This document shows, piece by piece, positions 21,706 through 50,885 of a stretch of 64,000 nucleotides of DNA. This DNA comes from Nitrospirota bacterium. GTDB lineage: Bacteria; Nitrospirota; UBA9217. The position numbers and the translations under genes were made by a program. The stretch covers positions 4,930-68,929 of the forward strand of contig DASPQB010000253.1 of NCBI GenBank assembly GCA_035625205.1, given 5' to 3'. Each line of letters starts with the position of its first letter. Position 1 is the first letter of the stretch. Below the pieces are notes generated by a model. That model made no database searches. It was given only the letters and a program-made list of their open reading frames with translations, and was not told the DNA's origin.

Positions 21706-21921
21706 AGTTTTTTATACCTGCGAACATCCCGAGAGCCTCTTTTTCACTTCTCGAGGTTCCCGTAACTGGTTCCAAACTCTCAAAAAATAAAAAACCGTAT
21801 CCGGTCAGGATACGGCTCGAAAGGTCTTTGGTAATAAAATGCTCGCCTTCCCTACGCCGGCACTACCCGGATCAGGTTCTAAGGGTCGTCCTTTCGGGAC
21901 TCTCAGCCTCTTGGCTCCCCC
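21706..21921 (-). promoter_or_regulatory. TPP (THI-box) riboswitch with intrinsic-terminator expression platform, leader of thiSGEC
   Basis: Minus-strand aptamer GGGGGAGCC..GGCTGAGAGTCCC..ACCCTTAGAACCTGATCCGGGTAGTGCCGGCGTAGGGAAGG matches the THI-element consensus (CUGAGA, ACCUGAUC, GGCGUAGGGA). Followed by hairpin CCGTATCC-tgac-CGGATACGG plus a U-run (~21786-21815) before the thiS start. Confidence 0.8.
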
Positions 21922-22898
21922 AGCATACTATAGGTTAACAATACGGCAAGATAGGCATAAAGTCAATTATTTTCTCAAATCATACACGTATGCTTTTCAG
22001 TATTGCGGCAGATGAAATTGCAGGTGCCGTTTATGCTTGTTTCCTTAATCATTTAATTTGCGAGGGCACCTTGCAACAGAGCTGTTCCGAATCTACCTCC
22101 TCGTACATTCCATGATCGGCGAGACATCAGATTTCCCTGCCTTCGCCAAACGTACAACCGCCGGCACAGCGCGAGAACCGTGCTTTTTTCTCGTATCCGG
22201 ATAGCTGTTGGGCGCTCATTTCCCATTCCGTCATACCGTAAAATTTGCCTGCGCTGAAGCGTAATTTGAACTATAGGGACACTGAAACAACGCTGCCGCA
22301 TCAGTGGTCCTAGCCATAGATCAGACACGTGTCTTGCCGAGATCGTCGAGCACCATACCGGCCACAACCGAGCTCAGCTCGTACCGATTGTCTTTGGGAT
22401 ATGCACGCTCTGCGATGATCCTGCCGTTTTCTCCTTGAAGGAGAGCGCACGGTGACGAGATACGCTGGAACAAAATCGGTAAACAGACGCGACGATGGTC
22501 GAACATTATCTCCTCGATCACGCCCCTCGAACAACGGGAAGCAAACGGGGTTCTGACCTGCGACCCGGCGAGTTCCTCGCCGAAAAGGTTTTGGAGCGAC
22601 TTCTATGGCGAAGTACAAAATATTTACGTTGCTAGCCCACTATACGGACAAATATATTCAAAGTATTGTTGAAGAAAATATGATAACGGCATGTTCACCA
22701 CCCAAAATGGTTTGTCTCATTTTTGGTCATGCGTGATAGTAAAAAATGTTAGTTGACTTTCATGATGCTTTTGCATTAATATTCGCAAAATATCATTCTT
22801 TGTAATTCCATCCATGATTCCACTTCCGTTCTTTGCCAAACGATTTAGATAAAGGTCATTACGATAAACTCATCACATTCAACCAAGGAGGGTTTAAA

Positions 22899-24149
22899 AT
22901 GCGCCGTAACATCTGGTGGTGTTTGGTCATTGGATTATCTCTAATATGCATAAGTATGCCTTTTCCCGTCACAGCCAAGGAAGACTGTATAAAAGCCGCA
23001 AAACTTTCTGATGAGGCAGGCGATCTTGTTTCATCGGACCCGCAACTTGCTGAAAATAAACTTCACCAAGCGCTTTACTACTGCGATTCAAGCGCAGCAT
23101 TGCATTACAACCTTGCAATGGTCCTCATCAGCAATCAAAAACCCGCTGAAGCAGCGAAGCAGTTGGAATTCGCACTCAAGCACAATCCGAAGTATGCCAA
23201 GGCGTTGAATGCTCTTGCCTATCTCTACGCCACAAAGGCCGGAGGAGACCAGGTAAAAGCAAAGCAACTGGCCCAGAATGCCGTAGCTCTCGAACCGGAT
23301 AACGAACAGTACCGACAAACCCTCGAAATGATAACCAGCAACATCGAGGTGGCCCCCCGAACAGCAGTTCGCAGGCCCGATGCTGTAGCGATCATTATCG
23401 GCAATAAAAACTACCAGGACCGCCACATCCCGACAGTTAAATATGCGTACCAGGACGCCGCGCTGGTAAGAAAGTATCTCGTTAACACCCTTGGTTTTGA
23501 TGAGAAGAACATCGTTATGGTCAGCGATGCAAAAAAGGACGACTTTGAAAAATTTTTTGGCACTGAGAGCAATTATAAGGGGTTCTTGTACAACCATGTC
23601 ATCCAAGACCGTTCCGATATTTTTATTTACTATTCCGGCCATGGTGCACCGGACACCAATACGAAGAAAGCATACCTGGTCCCCACCAGCGCCGATCCGA
23701 GTTACATCAATATCACCGCTTATTCACTCGATCTCCTCTATGGGAACCTGGAAAAATTGGATAACGACAAAAAACCCAAAAGCATTACCGTGGTTCTCGA
23801 CTCCTGCTTTAGCGGCGGATCCAATGGGGGCATGATTATCAGGGATGCCAGCCCTATCTTCATTGAAACGACAACCCCGCTTCTTACAATGGACAACGCC
23901 GTGATATTTACCAGCTCCCAGGGTGACCAGATCAGCTCCTGGTATTCGGAAAAACAACATGGACTCTTCACGTACTTTTTCCTGAAAACGATCAAAACGG
24001 CCGCGGAAAATGGCGCTCATTTGACCGCAGAAGACATGGAAAAAGCGCTCCAGGAGCCTGACAGTATAAATGATTATGCGCGGAAATTGTACAACCGTGA
24101 ACAGGTACCCCAGATTACAGGCAATAAAAAGATAACCCTGATTCCTTAG
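22899..24149 (+). CDS. Secreted TPR-repeat protein with C-terminal caspase-like (peptidase C14) domain
   Basis: RBS AAGGAGG 7 nt upstream of the ATG at 22899. Signal peptide MRRNIWWCLVIGLSLICISMPFPVTA. TPR repeats (~aa 30-170). Caspase p20-like core with AVAIIIGNKNY, catalytic His in IYYSGHGAPD and catalytic Cys in VVLDSCFSGG. The ORF-table start at 22833 is probably too far upstream. Confidence 0.8.
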   Translation: MRRNIWWCLVIGLSLICISMPFPVTAKEDCIKAAKLSDEAGDLVSSDPQLAENKLHQALYYCDSSAALHYNLAMVLISNQKPAEAAKQLEFALKHNPKYAKALNALAYLYATKAGGDQVKAKQLAQNAVALEPDNEQYRQTLEMITSNIEVAPRTAVRRPDAVAIIIGNKNYQDRHIPTVKYAYQDAALVRKYLVNTLGFDEKNIVMVSDAKKDDFEKFFGTESNYKGFLYNHVIQDRSDIFIYYSGHGAPDTNTKKAYLVPTSADPSYINITAYSLDLLYGNLEKLDNDKKPKSITVVLDSCFSGGSNGGMIIRDASPIFIETTTPLLTMDNAVIFTSSQGDQISSWYSEKQHGLFTYFFLKTIKTAAENGAHLTAEDMEKALQEPDSINDYARKLYNREQVPQITGNKKITLIP

Positions 24150-24201: not shown

Positions 24202-24609
24202 ATGAAAAAATTAATCGCCTTGGCCATCATGCTGTCAATCGCCATCCCCCTTCCGGTTCGCGCCGGGCTGACACCTGACTTCGAGCCCGTTGAACAGAAC
24301 TTGATTGACCAGCAAAAACAACAGGAAGAACAGGAACGCCTGCAAAAGGAGCAACAGCAGCAAGAACAGCAAAGGCTTGAAAATCAAAGAATTCAGCAGG
24401 AAATGAACAAGGGACTGCAGCAGCCTGCGCAGCTAACGCCTCAGCAGGCGCCAGTAGCGAAAAAATCAGGCTCGACCTGGTGGATATGGGTGCTTGGGAT
24501 ACTGGCTGTTGGCGGTATCGCTGCAGCCGCAGGAGGAAGTCATGGCAGCAGTAGCAGCAGTAGCAGCAGTGGCGGAGGCAGTACGGGTGCTGTCTCGGCA
24601 CATTGGTAA
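24202..24609 (+). CDS. Gln/Glu-rich coiled-coil protein with signal peptide, C-terminal TM helix and Ser/Gly tail
   Basis: RBS AGGAGG before the ATG at 24202. Signal peptide MKKLIALAIMLSIAIPLPVRAG. Low-complexity QQKQQEEQERLQKEQQQQEQQRLENQRIQQE block, TM helix WWIWVLGILAVGGIAAAAGG, poly-Ser tail. Confidence 0.5.
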   Translation: MKKLIALAIMLSIAIPLPVRAGLTPDFEPVEQNLIDQQKQQEEQERLQKEQQQQEQQRLENQRIQQEMNKGLQQPAQLTPQQAPVAKKSGSTWWIWVLGILAVGGIAAAAGGSHGSSSSSSSSGGGSTGAVSAHW

Positions 24610-24692: not shown

Positions 24693-27600
24693 ATGAAACG
24701 AATGTTCATTTTATTCCTGGCAATCAGTTTCTCTTCCTTCCTTCTCATCGGGTGCGGCTCTCAAGGATCGCAAAATAGCGCTACCGGTACCGGATCGATT
24801 GCATTTCAAGCCCAATGGCTCGGCTCGGCCCCGGTGACGCAGCAAGCACATGCTACATCCGAATCGCCTGTTATCAGGACCGCCCCTGCAAACGTTACAA
24901 CCGTCCAGTTGATTATTTCTGGTGCGGATATGGCCACGATAGGTCCAATTAGCTTCGCAGCTTCCGCAGGGGTAGGAACCATCAGCGGAGTACCAGTCGG
25001 ATCCGACCGAACACTCCTCATGCTCGGGCTAAACTCTAGCAACACTGTTGTTTACCAGGGCGTGAGCTACAACATCACTGTTACTGCAAACCAAACGTCG
25101 AATGCCGGAACGATTGTCCTGGCACCCGTTGTGGCGGGTGGACTCTCAGTCCCATGGCAAGTCGCGGTGGACTCCACTAATATTTACTGGACCGAACAAG
25201 GCACAGGGACGGCCGACGGCTTTGTGAAAAAGATGTCTATTGCGACGGGAGTGATAACCACCCTGGCAAGCGGTCTCTCCGACCCGGTGGGGATCGCCAT
25301 TGATGCAAGCTTTGTCTATTGGACGGAATACGCGCAAGGGACGACCGGCCTTGGCTCGGTCAAAAAAATCAGCATCTCGGGCGGCACAACGCCTACGGTG
25401 CTTACCTCAGGAATCTCGGGTCCCTGGGGTATAGCTGTAGATGGGACCACTGTCTACTGGACCGAATACTTGAACAGCGGTTCGGTTATGAAAATCAACA
25501 AGAATAGCATTAACAGCGCTGGCACAACCCTTGTATCTGGCCTGGCATGGCCCCTCGGGATTGTAGTGGATGCGACCAATGTGTACTGGGCGGAGAACCC
25601 AGCGAACGGCGGAGCTGTAAAGAAAATTCCTATCGGTGGAGGAGCCGCAACGACTCTTGCGACCAGTTTGAGCAGCCCCACGTATATCGCAGTGGATTCG
25701 ACGAGTGTGTACTACACAGAGTACGGTACCGAAGACACAAGCGGGAACACAATTGCCGCCTCGGGAAGCCTGAAAAAAGTATCGTTATCTGCGTCATCAT
25801 ATCCTACGACACCGACAACGCTTGCCTCCGGCCTCAACTATGCGGCAGGTATTGCAGTGGACTCAACGAACGTCTACTTCACGGAATTTGGCTTCTCAAT
25901 CGGCTCGGTCAAATACGTACCGATAAATGCCAGCAACGCCACACCGACGCCTGTTGTGATTAACCTTCCCAATGGCACGACAACATCGGCTACTGGCCTG
26001 TATGCCCCCTATTACTTGGCTATTGATCCAAGTGACCAGTACGTGTATTGGACCGAAAGCAATTCAGGAACGATCAAGCGGGCAATCACAGGTACGTCGA
26101 GCACAACCGCACCTTCTGCACCTACAGGCGTAACGGCCACTGCCGGGAATGCGCAGGTAGCTGTAAGTTGGACGGCCTCCACCGGCGCAACATCGTATAA
26201 TGTCTACTATTCAACGTCTGCCGCTGTGTCTACCTCAAGTTACATCGGTTTGATCTCAACGACAACTACCACAGCCACTGTTTATGGACTTGCTAATGGT
26301 ACAACGTATTATTTCATCGTCACTGCTGTCAACGGAGCAGGACAGAGTGCAGCATCCAGTCCAGCGGCATCAGCAGTACCTTCGGCGGTCATAACCACTC
26401 CGGCTGCTCCTACAGGTGTAACGGCCACTGCCGGGAATGCGCAGGTAGCTGTAAGTTGGACGGCCTCCACCGGCGCAACGTCGTATGATGTCTACTATTC
26501 AACGTCAGCCGCTGTGTCTACCTCAAGTTACCTCGGTTTGATCACAACAGCCACGAATTCCGCTCTTGTGTCAGGACTCACTAACAGTACAACGTATTAT
26601 TTCATCGTCACTGCTGTTAACGGCGCCGGACAGAGCGCAGCATCCAGTCCAGCGGCATCAGCAGCACCGTCGGCGGTCATAACGATACCGTCTGCTCCTA
26701 CAGGCGTAACCGCCATAGCAGGAAATGCCCAGGCGACCTTAAGTTGGACGGCCTCCACCGGCGCAACGTCGTATGATATCTACTATTCAACGTCGGCCGC
26801 CGTATCCACGTCAAGTTACATCGGTTCGTTCTCAACAACGTCGACCTCAGACATTATCTCAGGACTTACTAACAGTACGACGTATTATTTCATCGTCACT
26901 GCCGTCAACAGCGCAGGTCAAAGCACAGCGTCCACTCCAACAGTCTCTGCTATGCCATCAGCAAGTATCCTATATCAGTTCAGCTCCATAGATGTGCCCA
27001 ATGCGGTCAATACGTATGCCACCGCAATCAACAGCACCGGCCAGGTAGTTGGATACTACTGGGACTCAAGCAATATACAACACGGCTATTTACTTACTTC
27101 AGGAACATTCTCTACCATTGATTATCCGGGAGCCACGGTGGAGTGGGGGACCGAGTTGTGGGGAATTAACGATTCCGGAGCTATTGTCGGAGCACATGGT
27201 CCAGTCTACATTGGTGTTGCTTATGGTTTCGTTTTGTCCGGCGGGGTTTTCACTTCAATTAATTTCTCCACTGCCCCCGGCAGCGCTCTCGGAGCAAATG
27301 CCATGGGAATCAACAATGCCGGCCAGGTCGTGGGAGAGTATGAGGCCGGGTCTGCTCCCACTTCTTTTTGTCCGTCCTGCGTATTTCCATCAAATCCCGC
27401 TATTGGCTATTTGGATACTGCAGGGAGTTACACTGCATTTATCCCCGCAGGGTCTGGGAGTAGCACTGCCAACGGCATCAATACAGCCGGCAAGATTGTA
27501 GGCGGATACTATGACTCAAGCCTCGCGGGACACGGTTATACGTATTCTGGAGGAGTCTTTACTACTATTGATTTCCCCGGAGGGGGTGGCTCCAATTCGA

Positions 27601-27827
27601 GCAATAACAAACTTTTTAAAATCAATGATAACGGACAGATGGTGGGAGAATACGTGGACTCAACGGGCAAATGGCATGGCTATCTGTATAACGGAACTAC
27701 CTTTACAACTATTGATGTGCCCAATGCCACCGGTACGTTTACTCTTGGCATCAACAATTCTGGGCAGATCGTGGGATATTGGACCGATTCCAGCAGCAAA
27801 GCGCATGGTTTTATAGCAACGCCATGA
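24693..27827 (+). CDS. Large surface lipoprotein: YWTD-type beta-propeller + 3 fibronectin type III domains + HAF-like C-terminal repeats
   Basis: Lipoprotein signal MKRMFILFLAISFSSFLLIGCGS. Seven ~43-aa blades, each ending in a YWTE-type motif (STNIYWTEQG, SFVYWTEYA, TTVYWTEYL, TNVYWAENP, TSVYYTEYG, TNVYFTEFG, QYVYWTESN), with P-GIAVD between blades. Three 96-aa Fn3 repeats (SWTASTGATSY..YYS..TYYFIVTAVN). Six C-terminal ~45-aa repeats IN(N/D)xGQ(I/V)VG..(Y/W).DS...HG(Y/F). Confidence 0.8.
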   Translation: MKRMFILFLAISFSSFLLIGCGSQGSQNSATGTGSIAFQAQWLGSAPVTQQAHATSESPVIRTAPANVTTVQLIISGADMATIGPISFAASAGVGTISGVPVGSDRTLLMLGLNSSNTVVYQGVSYNITVTANQTSNAGTIVLAPVVAGGLSVPWQVAVDSTNIYWTEQGTGTADGFVKKMSIATGVITTLASGLSDPVGIAIDASFVYWTEYAQGTTGLGSVKKISISGGTTPTVLTSGISGPWGIAVDGTTVYWTEYLNSGSVMKINKNSINSAGTTLVSGLAWPLGIVVDATNVYWAENPANGGAVKKIPIGGGAATTLATSLSSPTYIAVDSTSVYYTEYGTEDTSGNTIAASGSLKKVSLSASSYPTTPTTLASGLNYAAGIAVDSTNVYFTEFGFSIGSVKYVPINASNATPTPVVINLPNGTTTSATGLYAPYYLAIDPSDQYVYWTESNSGTIKRAITGTSSTTAPSAPTGVTATAGNAQVAVSWTASTGATSYNVYYSTSAAVSTSSYIGLISTTTTTATVYGLANGTTYYFIVTAVNGAGQSAASSPAASAVPSAVITTPAAPTGVTATAGNAQVAVSWTASTGATSYDVYYSTSAAVSTSSYLGLITTATNSALVSGLTNSTTYYFIVTAVNGAGQSAASSPAASAAPSAVITIPSAPTGVTAIAGNAQATLSWTASTGATSYDIYYSTSAAVSTSSYIGSFSTTSTSDIISGLTNSTTYYFIVTAVNSAGQSTASTPTVSAMPSASILYQFSSIDVPNAVNTYATAINSTGQVVGYYWDSSNIQHGYLLTSGTFSTIDYPGATVEWGTELWGINDSGAIVGAHGPVYIGVAYGFVLSGGVFTSINFSTAPGSALGANAMGINNAGQVVGEYEAGSAPTSFCPSCVFPSNPAIGYLDTAGSYTAFIPAGSGSSTANGINTAGKIVGGYYDSSLAGHGYTYSGGVFTTIDFPGGGGSNSSNNKLFKINDNGQMVGEYVDSTGKWHGYLYNGTTFTTIDVPNATGTFTLGINNSGQIVGYWTDSSSKAHGFIATP
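26100..26963 (+). repeat. Three tandem 288-bp near-identical repeats (the Fn3-encoding units) inside the lipoprotein gene
   Basis: Repeat landmark ACAGG(C/T)GTAAC(G/C)GCCA at 26124, 26412 and 26700 (period exactly 288 bp). Copies 1 and 2 are nearly identical at nucleotide level over >250 bp; copy 3 is more diverged. Confidence 0.85.
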
Positions 27828-27919: not shown

Positions 27920-28244
27920 ATCGAGAGCCCTAACCCATCTTCCGCAGTTAAAAATTCAAAGTTCCAATAAATCAGTTTCTTAGCTCGCACAATTGGCAAA
28001 AGTCGGCACTACACGCGGTTTTTAAAAATCACCAGTAAAAAAATCAATATGTTGGTTGCTCAAATCGGCTCAAAATAGTTTAAAAGATGATCAATCTGCG
28101 GAAGATGGGCTAGCGTTACATTTGGGGCTTCCTTACATCCGTTTTTCTTGATATGCATCCGTCTGATTCGGGTCTTGCAGAGGGATTGGAAATCTGCAAC
28201 ATCCCCTCCACAAATTAGACGAATCATCTGCCAGCACGACGTTG

Positions 28245-29090
28245 TTACTCTCTCACCTCATACCCCACCGTACTTTCCGCCCACAGCGAGGGATCGAGGT
28301 CTGACAGCTCTTTCATCAGATCAGTAATTGTGGGGTTTTCCAGGGATTTGTCGGCAAGGAGCGATGTTTTTTCTTTCGTGGCGATCACGAGTACAGATTC
28401 GATAGATTGTTTTACTCCCTTGGGTGTCTTCACCTTAAGCCGGAGCCCCCGGTCCCTGGTAGTGTTATCGGGGAATATGAACTCTGTTTCCCCGGCCAGA
28501 GCAGCCTTCTGCTGCTTAACGTAAGAATTCGGATAGAGTTTGCTTACGTTCCCGTACTGGTCCACGCTGAAAAGCTGGAGGAATGCGTCTTCATTGGTAG
28601 TGATCCGAATCTGAATCTCGTCATTATTCTGGAAGACTGGGCTCTTTGCCGCAAGATCCATGTCCGGCCTCTGTACCGAAGCCGATGTGATCGAGAAATT
28701 CCCTTTTCTTTCGATATTGAGCGGCTTTATGGATGCCTTAATCTTGGCAACGCACAGAAAACGCCCATCCGCAATTTTACAGGAGTTATCCAGAAGTTGT
28801 TCCTGGACGATAATCCCCTTGGTCGCCGTCCTTACCAGATCGTTGATAAGGATATTATTGTACACGACCGATGAACCACGCACCTCTATCCCCGTCGCTT
28901 TTTCAAGTGCATCCCTGCGAGCGTTGTTCAAGGCCGTGACCTTGCCTTGGGACATGGTAGCGTCCTCTCCCAGATTCGCCTGTCCTTCGCCTTCTACCAC
29001 TTTTAACTCGTCAGCGGCAAAGAGCGGTGATAAGATCATGAAAAATACTACTATGAGGAACAGCAGTCTGAGAATTATAGTCTTCGTCAT
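28245..29090 (-). CDS. Secreted LPP20-like N-terminal domain + DUF4384-like C-terminal domain protein
   Basis: RBS AAGGGAG before the ATG. Signal peptide MTKTIILRLLFLIVVFFMILSPLFAADE. N-terminal GEGQANLGEDATMSQGKVTALNNARRDALEKATGIEV resembles LPP20/FlgP. C-terminal DEIQIRITTNEDAFLQLFSVDQYGNVSKLYPN ... FIFPD ... VLVIATKE resembles the DUF4384 pattern. Confidence 0.55.
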   Translation of the reverse strand: MTKTIILRLLFLIVVFFMILSPLFAADELKVVEGEGQANLGEDATMSQGKVTALNNARRDALEKATGIEVRGSSVVYNNILINDLVRTATKGIIVQEQLLDNSCKIADGRFLCVAKIKASIKPLNIERKGNFSITSASVQRPDMDLAAKSPVFQNNDEIQIRITTNEDAFLQLFSVDQYGNVSKLYPNSYVKQQKAALAGETEFIFPDNTTRDRGLRLKVKTPKGVKQSIESVLVIATKEKTSLLADKSLENPTITDLMKELSDLDPSLWAESTVGYEVRE

Positions 29091-32534: not shown

Positions 32535-32610
32535 TGGAGCGGGCGACGGGTCTCGAACCCGCGACCCCAAGCTTGGGAAGCTTGTACTCTACCAGCTGAG
32601 CTACGCCCGC
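32535..32610 (-). tRNA. tRNA-Gly (anticodon CCC)
   Basis: Minus-strand sequence GCGGGCGTAGCTCAGCTGGTAGAGTACAAGCTTCCCAAGCTTGGGGTCGCGGGTTCGAGACCCGTCGCCCGCTCCA. Perfect 7-bp acceptor stem, D arm, anticodon stem CAAGC/GCTTG with loop TTCCCAA, T arm GTTCGAGAC, encoded CCA. Confidence 0.85.
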
Positions 32611-46697: not shown

Positions 46698-48098
46698 TTA
46701 CTTTTCCAATTTTGGTGCATGTATCGCCATGCCGTGCACGTCCTCCGCCGCTTCCATGATCCCCTCTGCTAGCGTGGGGTGCGCATGGATCATCTGCCCC
46801 AGTTGAGCCGCCGTCGCGCCCATCTGGATGGCAAGCGCACCTTCGTGGATGATGTCCGTCGCATGAGCACCGCAGATGTGGACGCCCAGCACTCTGTCAG
46901 TGGACTCCTCGGCGAGAATCTTGATCATACCAGTGATTTCTCCCATCGCGTGCGCTTTGCCAAGCGTACGGTAGTGGAACCGCCCTACACGGTATTTCAT
47001 GCCCTTCTCTACGGCAGTTTTCTCTCGGATGCCGACACTCCCGATCTCAGGCATGGTAAAAATGCACGAAGGAACTACAGAGTAATCCATCTTCACCTTA
47101 CCGCCGAGGGCGTTTTCTACGGCTACAAGCCCCTGATGAGACGCAACGTGGGCGAGCATGATCTTGCCTGTTACGTCGCCGATGGCGTAAACGCCCTGGA
47201 CGCTGGTCTCCATTCTTTCGTCGACGACGATCTCGCCGCGATTCCCTCTGATCACACCGATGTCTTCGAGGAGGAGGCCGTCTGAGTTCATGCTGCGGCC
47301 AATGGACACAAGTATCATATCAACACCGAGTTCCTGCCCGTTCGAAAGCTTTACCCCGAGAATGCCATTAATGTTTTTTTCGATATTCTCTACTTTTGTG
47401 TTGGGAATAAGCTTGATCTTCGCTTTTTTCAATTCCCGTTCCAGGAGCTCGGACAATTCCTCGTCCTCGGTAGAAATCGCGTAAGGCATCATTTCAACCA
47501 TCGTTACTTCCGCGCCGAACGCGCGGTAGATGAAAGCGAATTCCGACCCGATCACGCCTGCGCCGACGATGAGCAACCTCGCCGGAATACTCTTGAGCAG
47601 GACCGCATCATCACTGGTGACGACGCTCTCGCCATCGAACGGGAAGCCGGGCAGTTTTGCAGGACGCGAACCTGTAGCGATGATGATTTTATCAGATTTA
47701 ATGTCCATCGTCGTGCCGTCTTCCTGCACCACGCGAACAACGTCGGGTGAGAGCAGCGAGCCGCGGCCCTGGATGAGGCTGACGCCCCAGCTCTTGAGCA
47801 GACCCCGGATGCCCTTCACCTGCGTTGATACCACCTTGTCTTTGCGTTCGCGGACCTTCGCGAGGTTGTAGCCGATAGCGCCGGGAACTTCTATGCCGAA
47901 ATCGTCGGCGTGTCGCACCCGTTCAAGCGTTTCAGCCGAGGCAATGAGGGTCTTTGTGGGAATGCAGCCCCAGTTCAGACAAGTGCCGCCCACTTCCGCA
48001 AATTCGATCAACGTCACCTGGGCGCCTTTCTGCGCCGCGTGAATCGCGGCTACATAGCCTCCCGGGCCCGCACCGATTATTGTAACTTTTATAGGCAT
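46698..48098 (-). CDS. lpd: Dihydrolipoyl dehydrogenase (E3 / glycine-cleavage L protein)
   Basis: RBS AAGGAG 6 nt before the internal start MPIKVTIIGAGPGGY (ORF-table start at 48227 rejected). GGTCLNWGCIPTK redox disulfide. C-terminal HAHPTLAE motif. Confidence 0.85.
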   Translation of the reverse strand: MPIKVTIIGAGPGGYVAAIHAAQKGAQVTLIEFAEVGGTCLNWGCIPTKTLIASAETLERVRHADDFGIEVPGAIGYNLAKVRERKDKVVSTQVKGIRGLLKSWGVSLIQGRGSLLSPDVVRVVQEDGTTMDIKSDKIIIATGSRPAKLPGFPFDGESVVTSDDAVLLKSIPARLLIVGAGVIGSEFAFIYRAFGAEVTMVEMMPYAISTEDEELSELLERELKKAKIKLIPNTKVENIEKNINGILGVKLSNGQELGVDMILVSIGRSMNSDGLLLEDIGVIRGNRGEIVVDERMETSVQGVYAIGDVTGKIMLAHVASHQGLVAVENALGGKVKMDYSVVPSCIFTMPEIGSVGIREKTAVEKGMKYRVGRFHYRTLGKAHAMGEITGMIKILAEESTDRVLGVHICGAHATDIIHEGALAIQMGATAAQLGQMIHAHPTLAEGIMEAAEDVHGMAIHAPKLEK

Positions 48099-48341
48099 TA
48101 CACACTCCTTGGGCAAGGTGGTTAAAAAATATGTTTCACACAGCAGTGACCAGAAAAACCGACCAGGCGTTCTAGGCGCAGATGAGCTGGAATAGGCCGA
48201 TAGCATAATCACAAAATCGATTTGCATTAGTAGAAGCTCTTTCGATTCGTCATCTGTGAAAATCTGTGTTCCAACGAATCTAGAAGTAATTTCCTCTATA
48301 TCCTCCGTAGTACCGCGCTCATGTGGTCAAGATCTTAAAGC

Positions 48342-48874: not shown

Positions 48875-49668
48875 GCAAAAAAATGTCGTCATTCATCGGC
48901 TTGCTGCAGAGAAGAACTTTCACGAGGGAAGATTAAAATATTATAACACAGCAACAGGCAAGAGAGAACGCTCAGGGATGTCATAGCTCATGTTGACGTA
49001 CTCCCAACGCTAAAGAACGTAGGGCTACCCACGCCATTTCCCTAAACGTAAATCGGGATAGGGGGGAGCCTCTCGGCTCCTCCCCTCCCACACCGTGCGT
49101 ACGGCTGCGTACACGGCAGTTCGGCTGGTTAAGCGAACGCTTCTCGCCTCGCTTTGGGTAGGCAGTGTTTCGCAAGCGTTTCGGTCCTTGTCGGTGTCCC
49201 TCGGGGCTTCACCCCTACCTTCACCGTGAACAGCTATACTGGATTTTCTGCCGCATTACGTTGGCAGTTTCATCCTACATGCAACTCCAACCGTTTGGGC
49301 CTTCGCCCCGCCACGGGACTATGATGCCCTCTGCGGACTTCTGCGCCACGGTCAGGAAACCTCACGGCTCCCTCAGTCTCGATTCCGGGACATGACGCAG
49401 ATCTCCCGAGGTAAATTCGACCGCCTTCCGCGCACAACCGCTGGATTTACGCCCTGCGCCTTTGATGGATGTCGACATCGCGATCATTTGCCCGCTCGTG
49501 GGGCACTCACGCCTCATAGCCGGTTTTTGTTCATCGGCTCGCGCGTTTGCTCCACGCTTCTTTCAGACCCCGCGTCTCGATGAAGCCCTTGCGCTTCGCT
49601 AACCCTTCGCCTCCATCAGGCTGGGTAGCGGACTCGCACCTCCAAACTGTCGAACATGCTCGGCACAC

Positions 49669-49727: not shown

Positions 49728-50885
49728 CTATACTGCAACCGATTCCTCTGTTTTTGATTTTTTCTGCACGGTTGCGGAAGCAGCTTCCACCATGGTTATC
49801 GCTTTTTTCGGGCAGCGGGACTCGCACATCCTGCAGCCAATGCACTTCTCCTGGTTGACGACATGCAACGAACGGATTTCGCCGGAGATAGCGTTAACGG
49901 GGCAGACCTTCTCACACACATCGATGCCTACGCACTTCGCAGGATCGATATATGCTTTCGGCCGGGGGATATAATCGAAGATCGCATGCGTGGGACATTT
50001 CTTGACGCAAAGACCGCAGCTGATGCACTTGCTCTGGTCGATGCGCGCAAGATTGTTGTCGATCTTAATGGCATCCACCGGGCAGGTCCTGACGCAGATT
50101 CCGCAGGCGATGCAGCCGACCTGGCACTTTTTCTTGACGTCAACACCCTTGTCCCTGCTGTGGCAGCTGATGATCACAGCCTTAGAGGTCTGGGCAAGTT
50201 CGATGACCTGCTTAGGGCAGGCGGCTACGCACTTTCCGCAGGCCGTACACTTATCGGGATTTATAATCGGCAGGTTGTCGGCACTCATCGTGATCGCATC
50301 AAAAGGACAAGCCCGCATGCAGGTCCCGAATCCCAGGCATCCGTACTCACAGGATTTATCTCCACCAGCAGCCAGTACCGCCGCAGTGCAGTCCTGCACG
50401 CCGGTATAGATAAACCTCCTCTGGCTGAGCGACGCTCCACCCTGGCAGAAGACACGGGCAATCTTAGGCTCGAATTTTTCCGCTTTTTTACCCGTGATTT
50501 CGGCGATCTTTTCGGCGACTGCTGATTTACCAGGAGCGCACATGCTCACTGCTACGTCGGGATTGCCCACGACTGCCTCGGCGTATCCCATGCAGCCCGC
50601 GAACCCACAGGCCCCGCAGTTTGCGCCGGGCAGGACCTCGCGGACCTGCTCTACTTTTGGATCTACTTTCACCACGAAGCGGGCAGCGACCAGGGCAAGA
50701 GCCACGCCAAACACGATGCCGAGCCCCGCTAGTACGATTAGTGTCACATACACAGTGGACGTAGGGACGGCTCCTGTTGCCTCCGATGAAGCGCCAGCGT
50801 CGATGAGTGGCACAAGCTTGTTCGTAATCGTAAATAGTGAGTGGGAGAAGACCTGCATCAGAATATGCATAAATTGTTCATACAT
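49728..50885 (-). CDS. rnfB: Rnf complex subunit B with extended poly-ferredoxin domain
   Basis: N-terminal TM helix plus the PGANCGACGFAGC motif typical of RnfB, then at least five additional CxxCxxCxxxCP ferredoxin motifs (385 aa ORF). The true start may be an internal Met. Confidence 0.7.
   Translation of the reverse strand: MYEQFMHILMQVFSHSLFTITNKLVPLIDAGASSEATGAVPTSTVYVTLIVLAGLGIVFGVALALVAARFVVKVDPKVEQVREVLPGANCGACGFAGCMGYAEAVVGNPDVAVSMCAPGKSAVAEKIAEITGKKAEKFEPKIARVFCQGGASLSQRRFIYTGVQDCTAAVLAAGGDKSCEYGCLGFGTCMRACPFDAITMSADNLPIINPDKCTACGKCVAACPKQVIELAQTSKAVIISCHSRDKGVDVKKKCQVGCIACGICVRTCPVDAIKIDNNLARIDQSKCISCGLCVKKCPTHAIFDYIPRPKAYIDPAKCVGIDVCEKVCPVNAISGEIRSLHVVNQEKCIGCRMCESRCPKKAITMVEAASATVQKKSKTEESVAV

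Follow-up and report, generated by a model that had tools for sequence, protein, structure and literature searches.

A predicted lipoprotein with exchangeable propeller modules, encoded beside an exported caspase-like protease in Nitrospirota and Nitrospinota

The present work concerns a gene at positions 24693..27827 of a 64,000-nucleotide stretch of an environmental Nitrospirota metagenome-assembled genome (assembly GCA_035625205.1, contig DASPQB010000253.1), hereafter called the window. We read its product, with a probability of roughly one half, as a lipid-anchored, extracytoplasmic, modular binding protein whose gene shares a conserved operon with that of an exported caspase-like protease (orthocaspase). 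Comparisons of gene order show that three genes, for the protease, a small glycine-zipper protein and the lipoprotein, are kept together across Nitrospirota and Nitrospinota. Alignment of related contigs further shows that the distal part of the lipoprotein is exchanged by recombination between closely related strains, both in the number of its Fn3 domains and in its terminal module. The element conserved with the caspase gene is, judged from these comparisons, the N-terminal domain of the lipoprotein, rather than its YWTD-type or HAF propellers.

Gene island and layout of the lipoprotein

The lipoprotein gene belongs to a four-gene island located between thiamine genes (thiD, M23, thiC, thiE, thiG) and cobalamin genes (cobC/S/T/U), with the following features.

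22899..24149, plus strand: exported TPR-orthocaspase, 416 aa, counted from ATG 22899 (the mechanical open reading frame starts at TTG 22833)
24202..24609, plus strand: small glycine-zipper protein, 135 aa, HYA88417.1 ('hypothetical protein'), no Pfam match
24693..27827, plus strand: lipoprotein, single open frame, 1044 aa
27892..27919, no strand: bidirectional intrinsic terminator between the convergent lipoprotein and DUF4384 genes, GGCAGGCC-ATGTT-GGCCTGCC, followed by T7 and with A7 ahead
28245..29090, minus strand: DUF4384 protein exported by a signal peptide, 281 aa, HYA88419.1, its gene running towards the lipoprotein gene

Export signals were found on all four proteins. In the orthocaspase, a Sec signal peptide (MRRNIWWCLVIGLSLICISMPFPVTA, ahead of KE) is followed by TPR repeats and a Peptidase_C14 domain (54.3 bits versus 21.4), with a weak secondary match to Peptidase_C13; its His/Cys dyad is intact (YYSGHG, DSCFSGG) and the dyad columns are invariant in caspase alignment A3. 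The small protein comprises a signal peptide, a Q/E-rich segment, a hydrophobic segment of glycine-zipper type (WWIWVLGILAVGGIAAAAGG) and a tail of Ser and Gly, and it ends in an invariant Trp. Its basic residues lie N-terminal to the hydrophobic segment, an unusual arrangement for a simple N-out membrane anchor. Short gaps separate the three co-oriented genes (31-52 nt, according to the start codon taken for the small gene, and 83 nt), and the first clear terminator stands 3' of the lipoprotein gene; this terminator was read directly from the sequence and was not listed by the consensus scan.

The ATG of the lipoprotein gene is preceded by a ribosome-binding site (GAGAGG, 10 nt 5') and directly by an in-frame stop. 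The N-terminus of the product, MKRMFILFLAISFSSFLLIGC, leads to a lipobox L-I-G-C with Cys21, and combines a positive n-region (MKRMF..FLLIGC), a hydrophobic core and a lipobox of the type [LVI][ASTVI][GAS]C, so that lipidation is predicted. The sequence-only reading, made earlier from the letters of this DNA by a model, had described a giant lipoprotein; the lipoprotein assignment agrees with this signal, while 1044 aa is large rather than giant. From the lipobox onward, the protein is made of a ~120-aa N-terminal domain, which the sequence-only reading had left unmentioned, a seven-bladed YWTE propeller, three Fn3 domains and a six-bladed HAF propeller; on family matches, the propellers and the Fn3 domains are modules from known families.

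24693..24755, plus strand: lipoprotein signal peptide, lipobox L-I-G-C, Cys21; lipobox also present in orthologues
24756..25127, plus strand: conserved N-terminal domain, residues 22-145, ~124 aa between lipobox and propeller; no match in a local copy of Pfam
25128..26108, plus strand: predicted seven-bladed YWTE (YWTD/LDL-receptor class B type) beta-propeller, residues 146-472 (Pfam, motifs, AlphaFold2 model)
26109..26948, plus strand: three near-identical Fn3 domains, residues 473-752 (Pfam)
26105..26939: tandem DNA repeat encoding the Fn3 domains, 288 bp unit, 2.9 copies, 85% matches
26949..27824, plus strand: predicted six-bladed HAF-repeat beta-propeller, residues 753-1044 (NCBIfam, motifs, model)

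The composition is that of typical extracellular proteins rich in S, T, G and A: Lys and Arg together make up 2.1% of the residues, and cysteines are absent from residues 22-752. The exact sequence, searched with both possible start codons, is missing from a collection of ~15 billion proteins that does contain its neighbours HYA88417 and HYA88419; exact-sequence look-ups assign the contig to a Nitrospirota metagenome-assembled genome with proteins HYA88408-HYA88422. An identity as SinM (NF037948) was dropped at 56 bits versus a cut-off of 250 bits, this partial score being due to shared repeats only, and no paper on SinM was found.

Conservation of the trio through the N-terminal domain

The four-gene island was found at the same thiS/G/E - cobC/S/T/U site in loci L001-L005, where the C-terminal modules of the lipoprotein vary (HAF, Kelch, a 300-aa module without assignment, or a second YWTE propeller with Kelch). 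Using tblastn, the trio was also found in a more distant Nitrospirota locus (L023, caspase 57% identical) and in three loci of Nitrospinota (L006, L007, L086), where the caspase is only 24-27% identical. The Nitrospinota trio adjoins a gene of the IF-2B family (Pfam IF-2B), which is another genomic context, and that of L094 adjoins a gene judged to be MutS-like on visual inspection of its N-terminal sequence. The trio thus occurs in at least three genomic contexts and in two phyla. A metagenome scan with the caspase alignment gave 80 loci; wherever the caspase was at least 43% identical and enough contig remained downstream, the small gene and then a large lipoprotein with the N-terminal domain followed, and this in every locus. 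Beyond the N-terminal domain, these metagenomic lipoproteins differ in their modules.

L096 lipoprotein: DUF5122 and lactonase-type propellers
L094 lipoprotein: PD40 and Kelch
L091/L093 lipoprotein, 1279 aa: mostly without assigned family
L097 lipoprotein: Big_9, PKD and Lcl_C

The N-terminal domain is indeed the hallmark common to all large lipoproteins of these operons. The small protein family accompanies it (in the window and in L001-L006, L023, L086, L088-L096 and L169), always encoded directly 5' of a lipoprotein with this domain, and has no Pfam match. Its members share a signal peptide, a segment that is charged or rich in Q, the pattern KK-WW(K/I)W-LG..VGGIAAAAGG and a tail of Gly, Ser, Thr and Pro that closes with an invariant Trp (...T-x-T-W). 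Even beside a distant member of the N-terminal domain family, P0284, a small gene of like design lies directly upstream, with a product ending in ...GTITW. On the evidence of gene order, the link between lipoprotein and caspase gene is real and runs through the N-terminal domain. The suggestion that the protein, placed in a caspase locus, is a partner or substrate is thus supported as regards the link itself, kept in two phyla, and is not supported as regards the YWTD and HAF parts as the linked elements. Literature searches found no description of a trio of exported orthocaspase, glycine-zipper protein and lipoprotein with this N-terminal domain, nor any characterised exported orthocaspase.

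The domain defines a large family of its own. A search with its profile matched 1735 cluster representatives at E<=1e-3, of which 1085 pass E<=1e-10, and the domain nearly always falls at residues ~20-150. A lipobox-like motif is present in 114 of the top 143 representatives, and a YWTE motif is lacking in 130 of these 143. A search of PDB sequences gave no significant relative of the domain among solved structures. In 77 family members, Pfam counted the following modules after the domain: Fn3 (31/77), Lcl_C (13/77), Big_5 (10/77), FGE-sulfatase (7/77), Laminin_G_3 (6/77), Kelch and PKD (5/77 each), SBBP, NHL and Ldl_recept_b (4/77 each) and Lectin_C (3/77). Many members carry C-type-lectin-like modules (Lcl_C, FGE-sulfatase). 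Such modules are typical targets of diversity-generating retroelements, of which bAvd is an accessory protein; a gene matching bAvd/23S_rRNA_IVP was seen in L087 (1..249), where the YWTE-propeller protein P0028 is encoded ~5.7 kb further downstream.

The DUF4384 gene is kept at its position in L001-L003, L005, L091, L093 and L096. More generally, a DUF4384-like gene lies near the caspase in 31 of the 80 loci, directly downstream and on the same strand beside many caspases that are 40-49% identical. This arrangement beside distant caspases fits the known role of DUF4384 as an accessory domain of orthocaspases, including published fusions (PMC7475262, PMC6426788). As a separate observation, the caspase-DUF4384 pair, seen in metagenomic loci L099-L167, appears older and wider than the lipoprotein link.

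Exchange of the distal end

Metagenomic contigs related to the window share with it, at the thi/cob site, a caspase, a small gene, an N-terminal domain and a YWTE propeller of ~70-89% identity, and differ in the part that follows the propeller.

Window lipoprotein and P0001: three Fn3 and HAF propeller
P0003: three Fn3 and Kelch propeller
P0002 and P0004: two Fn3 and a ~300-aa module without assigned family
P0006: one Fn3, second YWTE propeller and Kelch
L023 orthologue (more distant Nitrospirota): nothing, the protein consisting of N-terminal domain and propeller only

Only P0001, 81% identical over its full length, has the whole architecture of the window lipoprotein. The combination of modules, taken to be unusual when the sequence was read alone, is therefore better described as a local mosaic, same-site orthologues carrying other C-terminal modules. 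The ~300-aa module of P0002 gave nothing significant against PDB sequences. DNA homology between the window and L002/L003 ends within the Fn3 array (~26,660-26,960) and restarts in the 3' intergenic region at ~28,116-28,245; a cassette made up of the terminal module and this intergenic DNA was therefore exchanged. The tandem repeat that encodes the Fn3 domains is a likely substrate for this recombination. No description of strain-level swapping of a distal propeller was found in literature searches.

The thi/cob site as a whole behaves as a variable island. In a related genome (L084, 6001..9198, and L085), the lipoprotein P0046 has the order N-terminal domain, Fn3 and C-terminal YWTE propeller, and is followed by a 292-aa gene without assignment; caspase, small protein and DUF4384 are all missing there.

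The YWTD-type propeller

Seven motifs were found by motif scan at residues 165, 209, 255, 298, 340, 395 and 452 (four YWTE, one YWAE, one YYTE, one YFTE), spaced by 42-57 aa, each with P.GIAVD ahead of it; the orthologue of L023 has seven motifs as well. Pfam Ldl_recept_b (PF00058) matched in two stretches (32.9 bits versus a gathering score of 21), and orthologues reached 26.6-59.9 bits. An AlphaFold2 model of residues 144-475, built from an alignment of 16 sequences, gave a predicted local distance difference test (pLDDT) of 91.6, a predicted template-modelling score (pTM) of 0.90 and a strand pattern of seven blades of four strands, in which an N-terminal strand closes blade 7. The seven blades of ~43 aa proposed from the sequence alone are thus recovered by both motifs and prediction.

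The top Foldseek matches to this model in the PDB were the YWTD propellers of LRP2, LRP6, nidogen, ApoER2 and LRP4 (E ~1e-12), with a template-modelling (TM) score of only ~0.5 because these have six blades instead of seven. A profile search of PDB sequences was led by LRP2 (310 bits over 8-9 propellers) and LRP4 (218 bits), with LRP6 also among the top matches and a single LDLR propeller at 76 bits; the motif register aligns with the YWTD of LRP2, Glu replacing Asp. The recognition of LDL-receptor class B repeats is in agreement with these results. No better fit to the PD40, NHL or SMP-30 families was obtained, since the Pfam models NHL, PD40 and SGL gave no match at E<=10 and only Arylesterase appeared (E 0.66), although the bacterial PknD sensor propeller scored 87.9 bits in the same profile search, above LDLR. 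Designed PknD-like Pizza6 proteins reached 111-113 bits, and the designed seven-bladed Pizza7H 123.5 bits, with the profile aligned end to end. In LDLR-family proteins and nidogen, the YWTD propeller packs against a C-terminal EGF-like module. Here, Pfam matched no EGF in the lipoprotein, Fn3 directly follows the propeller, and LDL-A modules are likewise absent. Given the YWTD motif and the model match on the one hand, and the equally good scores of PknD and Pizza7H on the other, the propeller is, as modelled, a seven-bladed bacterial form of the YWTD type, whose canonical blade count is six, without EGF or cysteines.

This type of propeller is not rare in bacteria, contrary to what had been supposed: two narrow peptide patterns alone gave 439 stretches and 408 confirmed relatives in bacterial and archaeal contigs representing one genome per species. 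These belong to Nitrospinota, Nitrospirota, Myxococcales/Polyangia, other Deltaproteobacteria and Elusimicrobia, and a single genome often encodes many paralogues. Several bacterial relatives and orthologues match PF16472 (DUF5050, called 'LRP1-like_beta_prop' in precomputed annotations), which did not match the lipoprotein of the window at E<=10. Nor does the label 'eukaryote-like' suit a propeller with seven blades, no EGF partner and hundreds of bacterial relatives; this lipoprotein family uses it as one module among several that can replace each other, and it is no eukaryote-like oddity.

The Fn3 stalk and the HAF propeller

The three Fn3 domains that had been proposed were recovered by Pfam (PF00041, 95 bits, three stretches, above cut-off). 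They contain no Lys, Arg or Glu, and orthologues have one, two or three copies.

In the C-terminal module, the six expected repeats (IN..G.(I/V)VG) were found by motif scan at residues 779, 825, 873, 929, 977 and 1020, in line with a score of 62.4 bits over five stretches for the NCBIfam model HAF_rpt, TIGR02913 (cut-off 22.65). The HAF assignment therefore stands under this model, while TIGR03803, the accession first suggested for it, is absent among the NCBIfam matches listed for the lipoprotein. The structural model (pLDDT 89.4) has 24 strands in six blades, and, at fold level, the PknD sensor domain, a sialidase and fucose lectins are among its nearest natural structures. The unit (289 aa) aligns over its full length with stand-alone HAF proteins (3367 matches, best 54% identity); its homologues are mostly stand-alone proteins of ~300 aa, many named 'probable HAF family extracellular repeat protein' in source records. 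The C-terminus of the lipoprotein, ...HGFIATP, lacks PEP-CTERM and stops exactly where some HAF proteins run into it. Literature searches found neither a characterised HAF-repeat protein nor a characterised bacterial YWTD propeller.

Proposed role and alternative explanations

From a mechanistic point of view, the lipid anchor and the N-terminal domain of the proposed binding protein would form a base docking the small protein, the protease or both, from which the Fn3 stalk would keep the terminal propeller off the membrane. This swappable propeller, with its lectin-like fold, would set the ligand, a glycan or a surface protein being the most plausible since lectin-like modules are used across the lipoprotein family; the orthocaspase would then act on captured material or on the lipoprotein itself. 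A bolder extension, which we consider improbable as a whole, is that the trio, often with DUF4384, constitutes a new extracytoplasmic caspase-based system in which the lipoprotein is an interchangeable ligand sensor or substrate receptor controlling or directing the protease at the envelope, with a fixed N-terminal docking domain ahead of a freely exchangeable sensor or lectin array. In such a system, the terminal strand of the small protein might complete or tether the N-terminal domain.

Several observations weigh against the role of a binding protein working with the caspase. The resemblance of the HAF module to lectins is at fold level only (TM ~0.5-0.6, 10-14% identity). The YWTE lipoprotein of L084/L085 sits at the thi/cob site without caspase or small gene, both of which are also lacking in L087, and a caspase is missing from the neighbourhood of 75 of the 78 distant YWTE-propeller loci. 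Depletion of Lys and Arg was considered as a co-adaptation to an Arg/Lys-specific protease, and this idea was dropped: unlinked YWTE-propeller proteins contain 2.5-6.6% of these residues and stand-alone HAF proteins a median of 5.1%, so that this poverty, found in unlinked relatives as well, does not discriminate. The L084/L085 arrangement, the lack of a caspase neighbour beside most YWTE-propeller genes elsewhere and the S/T/G/A-rich composition would also suit an independent surface adhesin or envelope structural protein. Its place beside the caspase gene would then reflect a hotspot for variable secreted-protein genes in the thi/cob gap, and no functional coupling. We regard this as unlikely, for the trio recurs in at least three unrelated contexts in two phyla, with caspase identity down to 24-27%, and the short gaps and the position of the first clear terminator speak for a common operon.

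The lipoprotein might instead be a dedicated substrate that the orthocaspase cuts, thereby setting free or activating the propeller array. By analogy, other clan-CD cysteine peptidases act in sorting or processing, namely PorU of type IX secretion, legumain and GPI (glycosylphosphatidylinositol) transamidase. The conserved operon, in which the lipoprotein gene always starts with the same N-terminal domain, is compatible with such a role, as are the intact His/Cys dyad and the weak Peptidase_C13 match. Orthocaspases cut after basic residues (PMC6426788), which was also counted in favour of a substrate. Suitable residues are scarce here, however: Lys and Arg are very few in the lipoprotein and absent from the Fn3 linkers, and those of the propeller lie within the repeated VKK strand. 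A basic residue ahead of the TAP motif of the N-terminal domain was considered as a cleavage site and dropped, as it is not conserved across the family (L091, L092, L084). We regard a dedicated substrate as unlikely too.

An origin by horizontal transfer of an LDL-receptor module from a eukaryote, yielding a receptor-like mimic of host biology, is hardly credible. It could draw on the Ldl_recept_b match and on the top PDB matches LRP2, LRP4, LRP6 and LDLR, but it conflicts with the hundreds of bacterial relatives, often multi-copy paralogues, in free-living environmental lineages, with seven blades where six would be expected, with the lack of EGF, LDL-A and cysteines, with the higher score of PknD (87.9 bits versus 76 for LDLR) and with the environmental nature of the Nitrospirota genome. 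Finally, a role in anti-phage defence was dropped because all four proteins are exported and the PADLOC matches were generic or weak, namely 'caspase' (E 4e-10) and PrimPol (adaptation polymerase, E 8.7e-05, in the TPR region), both on the protease; the PADLOC models gave no match on the other three proteins of the island.

Comparison with known systems

With the YWTD/LDL-receptor class B propellers (LDLR, LRP2, LRP4, LRP6, nidogen; PF00058), the lipoprotein shares the register of ~43-aa blades, strand 1 of the form P.G(I/L)AVD and strand 2 of the form (V/I)YW(T)(D/E). These proteins nevertheless have six blades, Asp in the motif, EGF/LDL-A flanks and disulfides, whereas seven blades are predicted here, with Glu and none of these additions. 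Propellers of the PknD sensor/NHL type, with six blades, are likewise bacterial and extracytoplasmic, have a similar blade motif and good profile scores, and are among the nearest folds to the HAF module; unlike these, the lipoprotein is not matched by Pfam NHL (E<=10) and has no kinase or transmembrane signalling part. HAF proteins (TIGR02913) have the same six repeats with the signature INxxGQ(I/V)VG...HG(F/Y). They are typically stand-alone secreted proteins of ~300-500 aa, some with PEP-CTERM (PF07589), whereas the HAF unit here forms the far end of a 1044-aa lipoprotein, where it is preceded by three other types of module.

Cyanobacterial orthocaspases with accessory domains (DUF4384, FGE-sulfatase/C-type-lectin-like, WD40, TPR) offer the closest parallel for the protease, which has the same association of a p20-type His/Cys caspase with TPR and DUF4384, and the lipoprotein family uses the same kinds of lectin-like and propeller modules as those fused to orthocaspases. 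By contrast, the protease described here carries a signal peptide for export and the binding modules are on a separate lipoprotein of the same operon, while the small glycine-zipper protein is an extra conserved component.

Other features of the window

Outside the island, three structured RNA features were found with Rfam.

21831..21931, minus strand: thiamine pyrophosphate (TPP) riboswitch (RF00059, 69.4 bits), upstream of the thiS-thiG-thiE-thiC string
32538..32610, minus strand: tRNA gene (RF00005, 64.8 bits), between cobU and a redoxin gene
49298..49584, minus strand: group II intron domain matches (RF02001, 94 bits; RF01998, 43 bits)

Between the riboswitch and the caspase promoter region, ~700 bp (21975..22674) have no DNA homology to the otherwise collinear L001/L002, L001 having only ~200 bp at this place; they hold two overlapping minus-strand open reading frames with TTG starts (22053..22367, 22310..22618) and no Pfam match. 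The group II intron matches have no reverse-transcriptase open reading frame adjoining and may represent an ORF-less or degraded intron; their neighbours encode a pyridine-nucleotide disulfide oxidoreductase (46698..48227) and a multi-4Fe-4S protein (49728..50885).

Significance

Bacterial caspase homologues have mostly been discussed as cytoplasmic proteases of cell death or immunity. Here, an exported caspase homologue is stably linked to a lipoprotein with a strain-swapped binding end and to a small uncharacterised membrane protein. For a specialist, an operon that pairs an exported caspase with a recognition subunit open to exchange is a moderate surprise, and the YWTD, Fn3 and HAF domains themselves are none. 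LDL-receptor-type propellers are no longer to be seen as a eukaryotic rarity in bacteria, where a seven-bladed form is now documented at the level of prediction. If the link is functional, it would amount to envelope proteolysis directed by exchangeable recognition modules, and would offer a context for three families that are poorly understood so far, namely HAF repeats, DUF4384 and an N-terminal domain of more than 1000 protein clusters.

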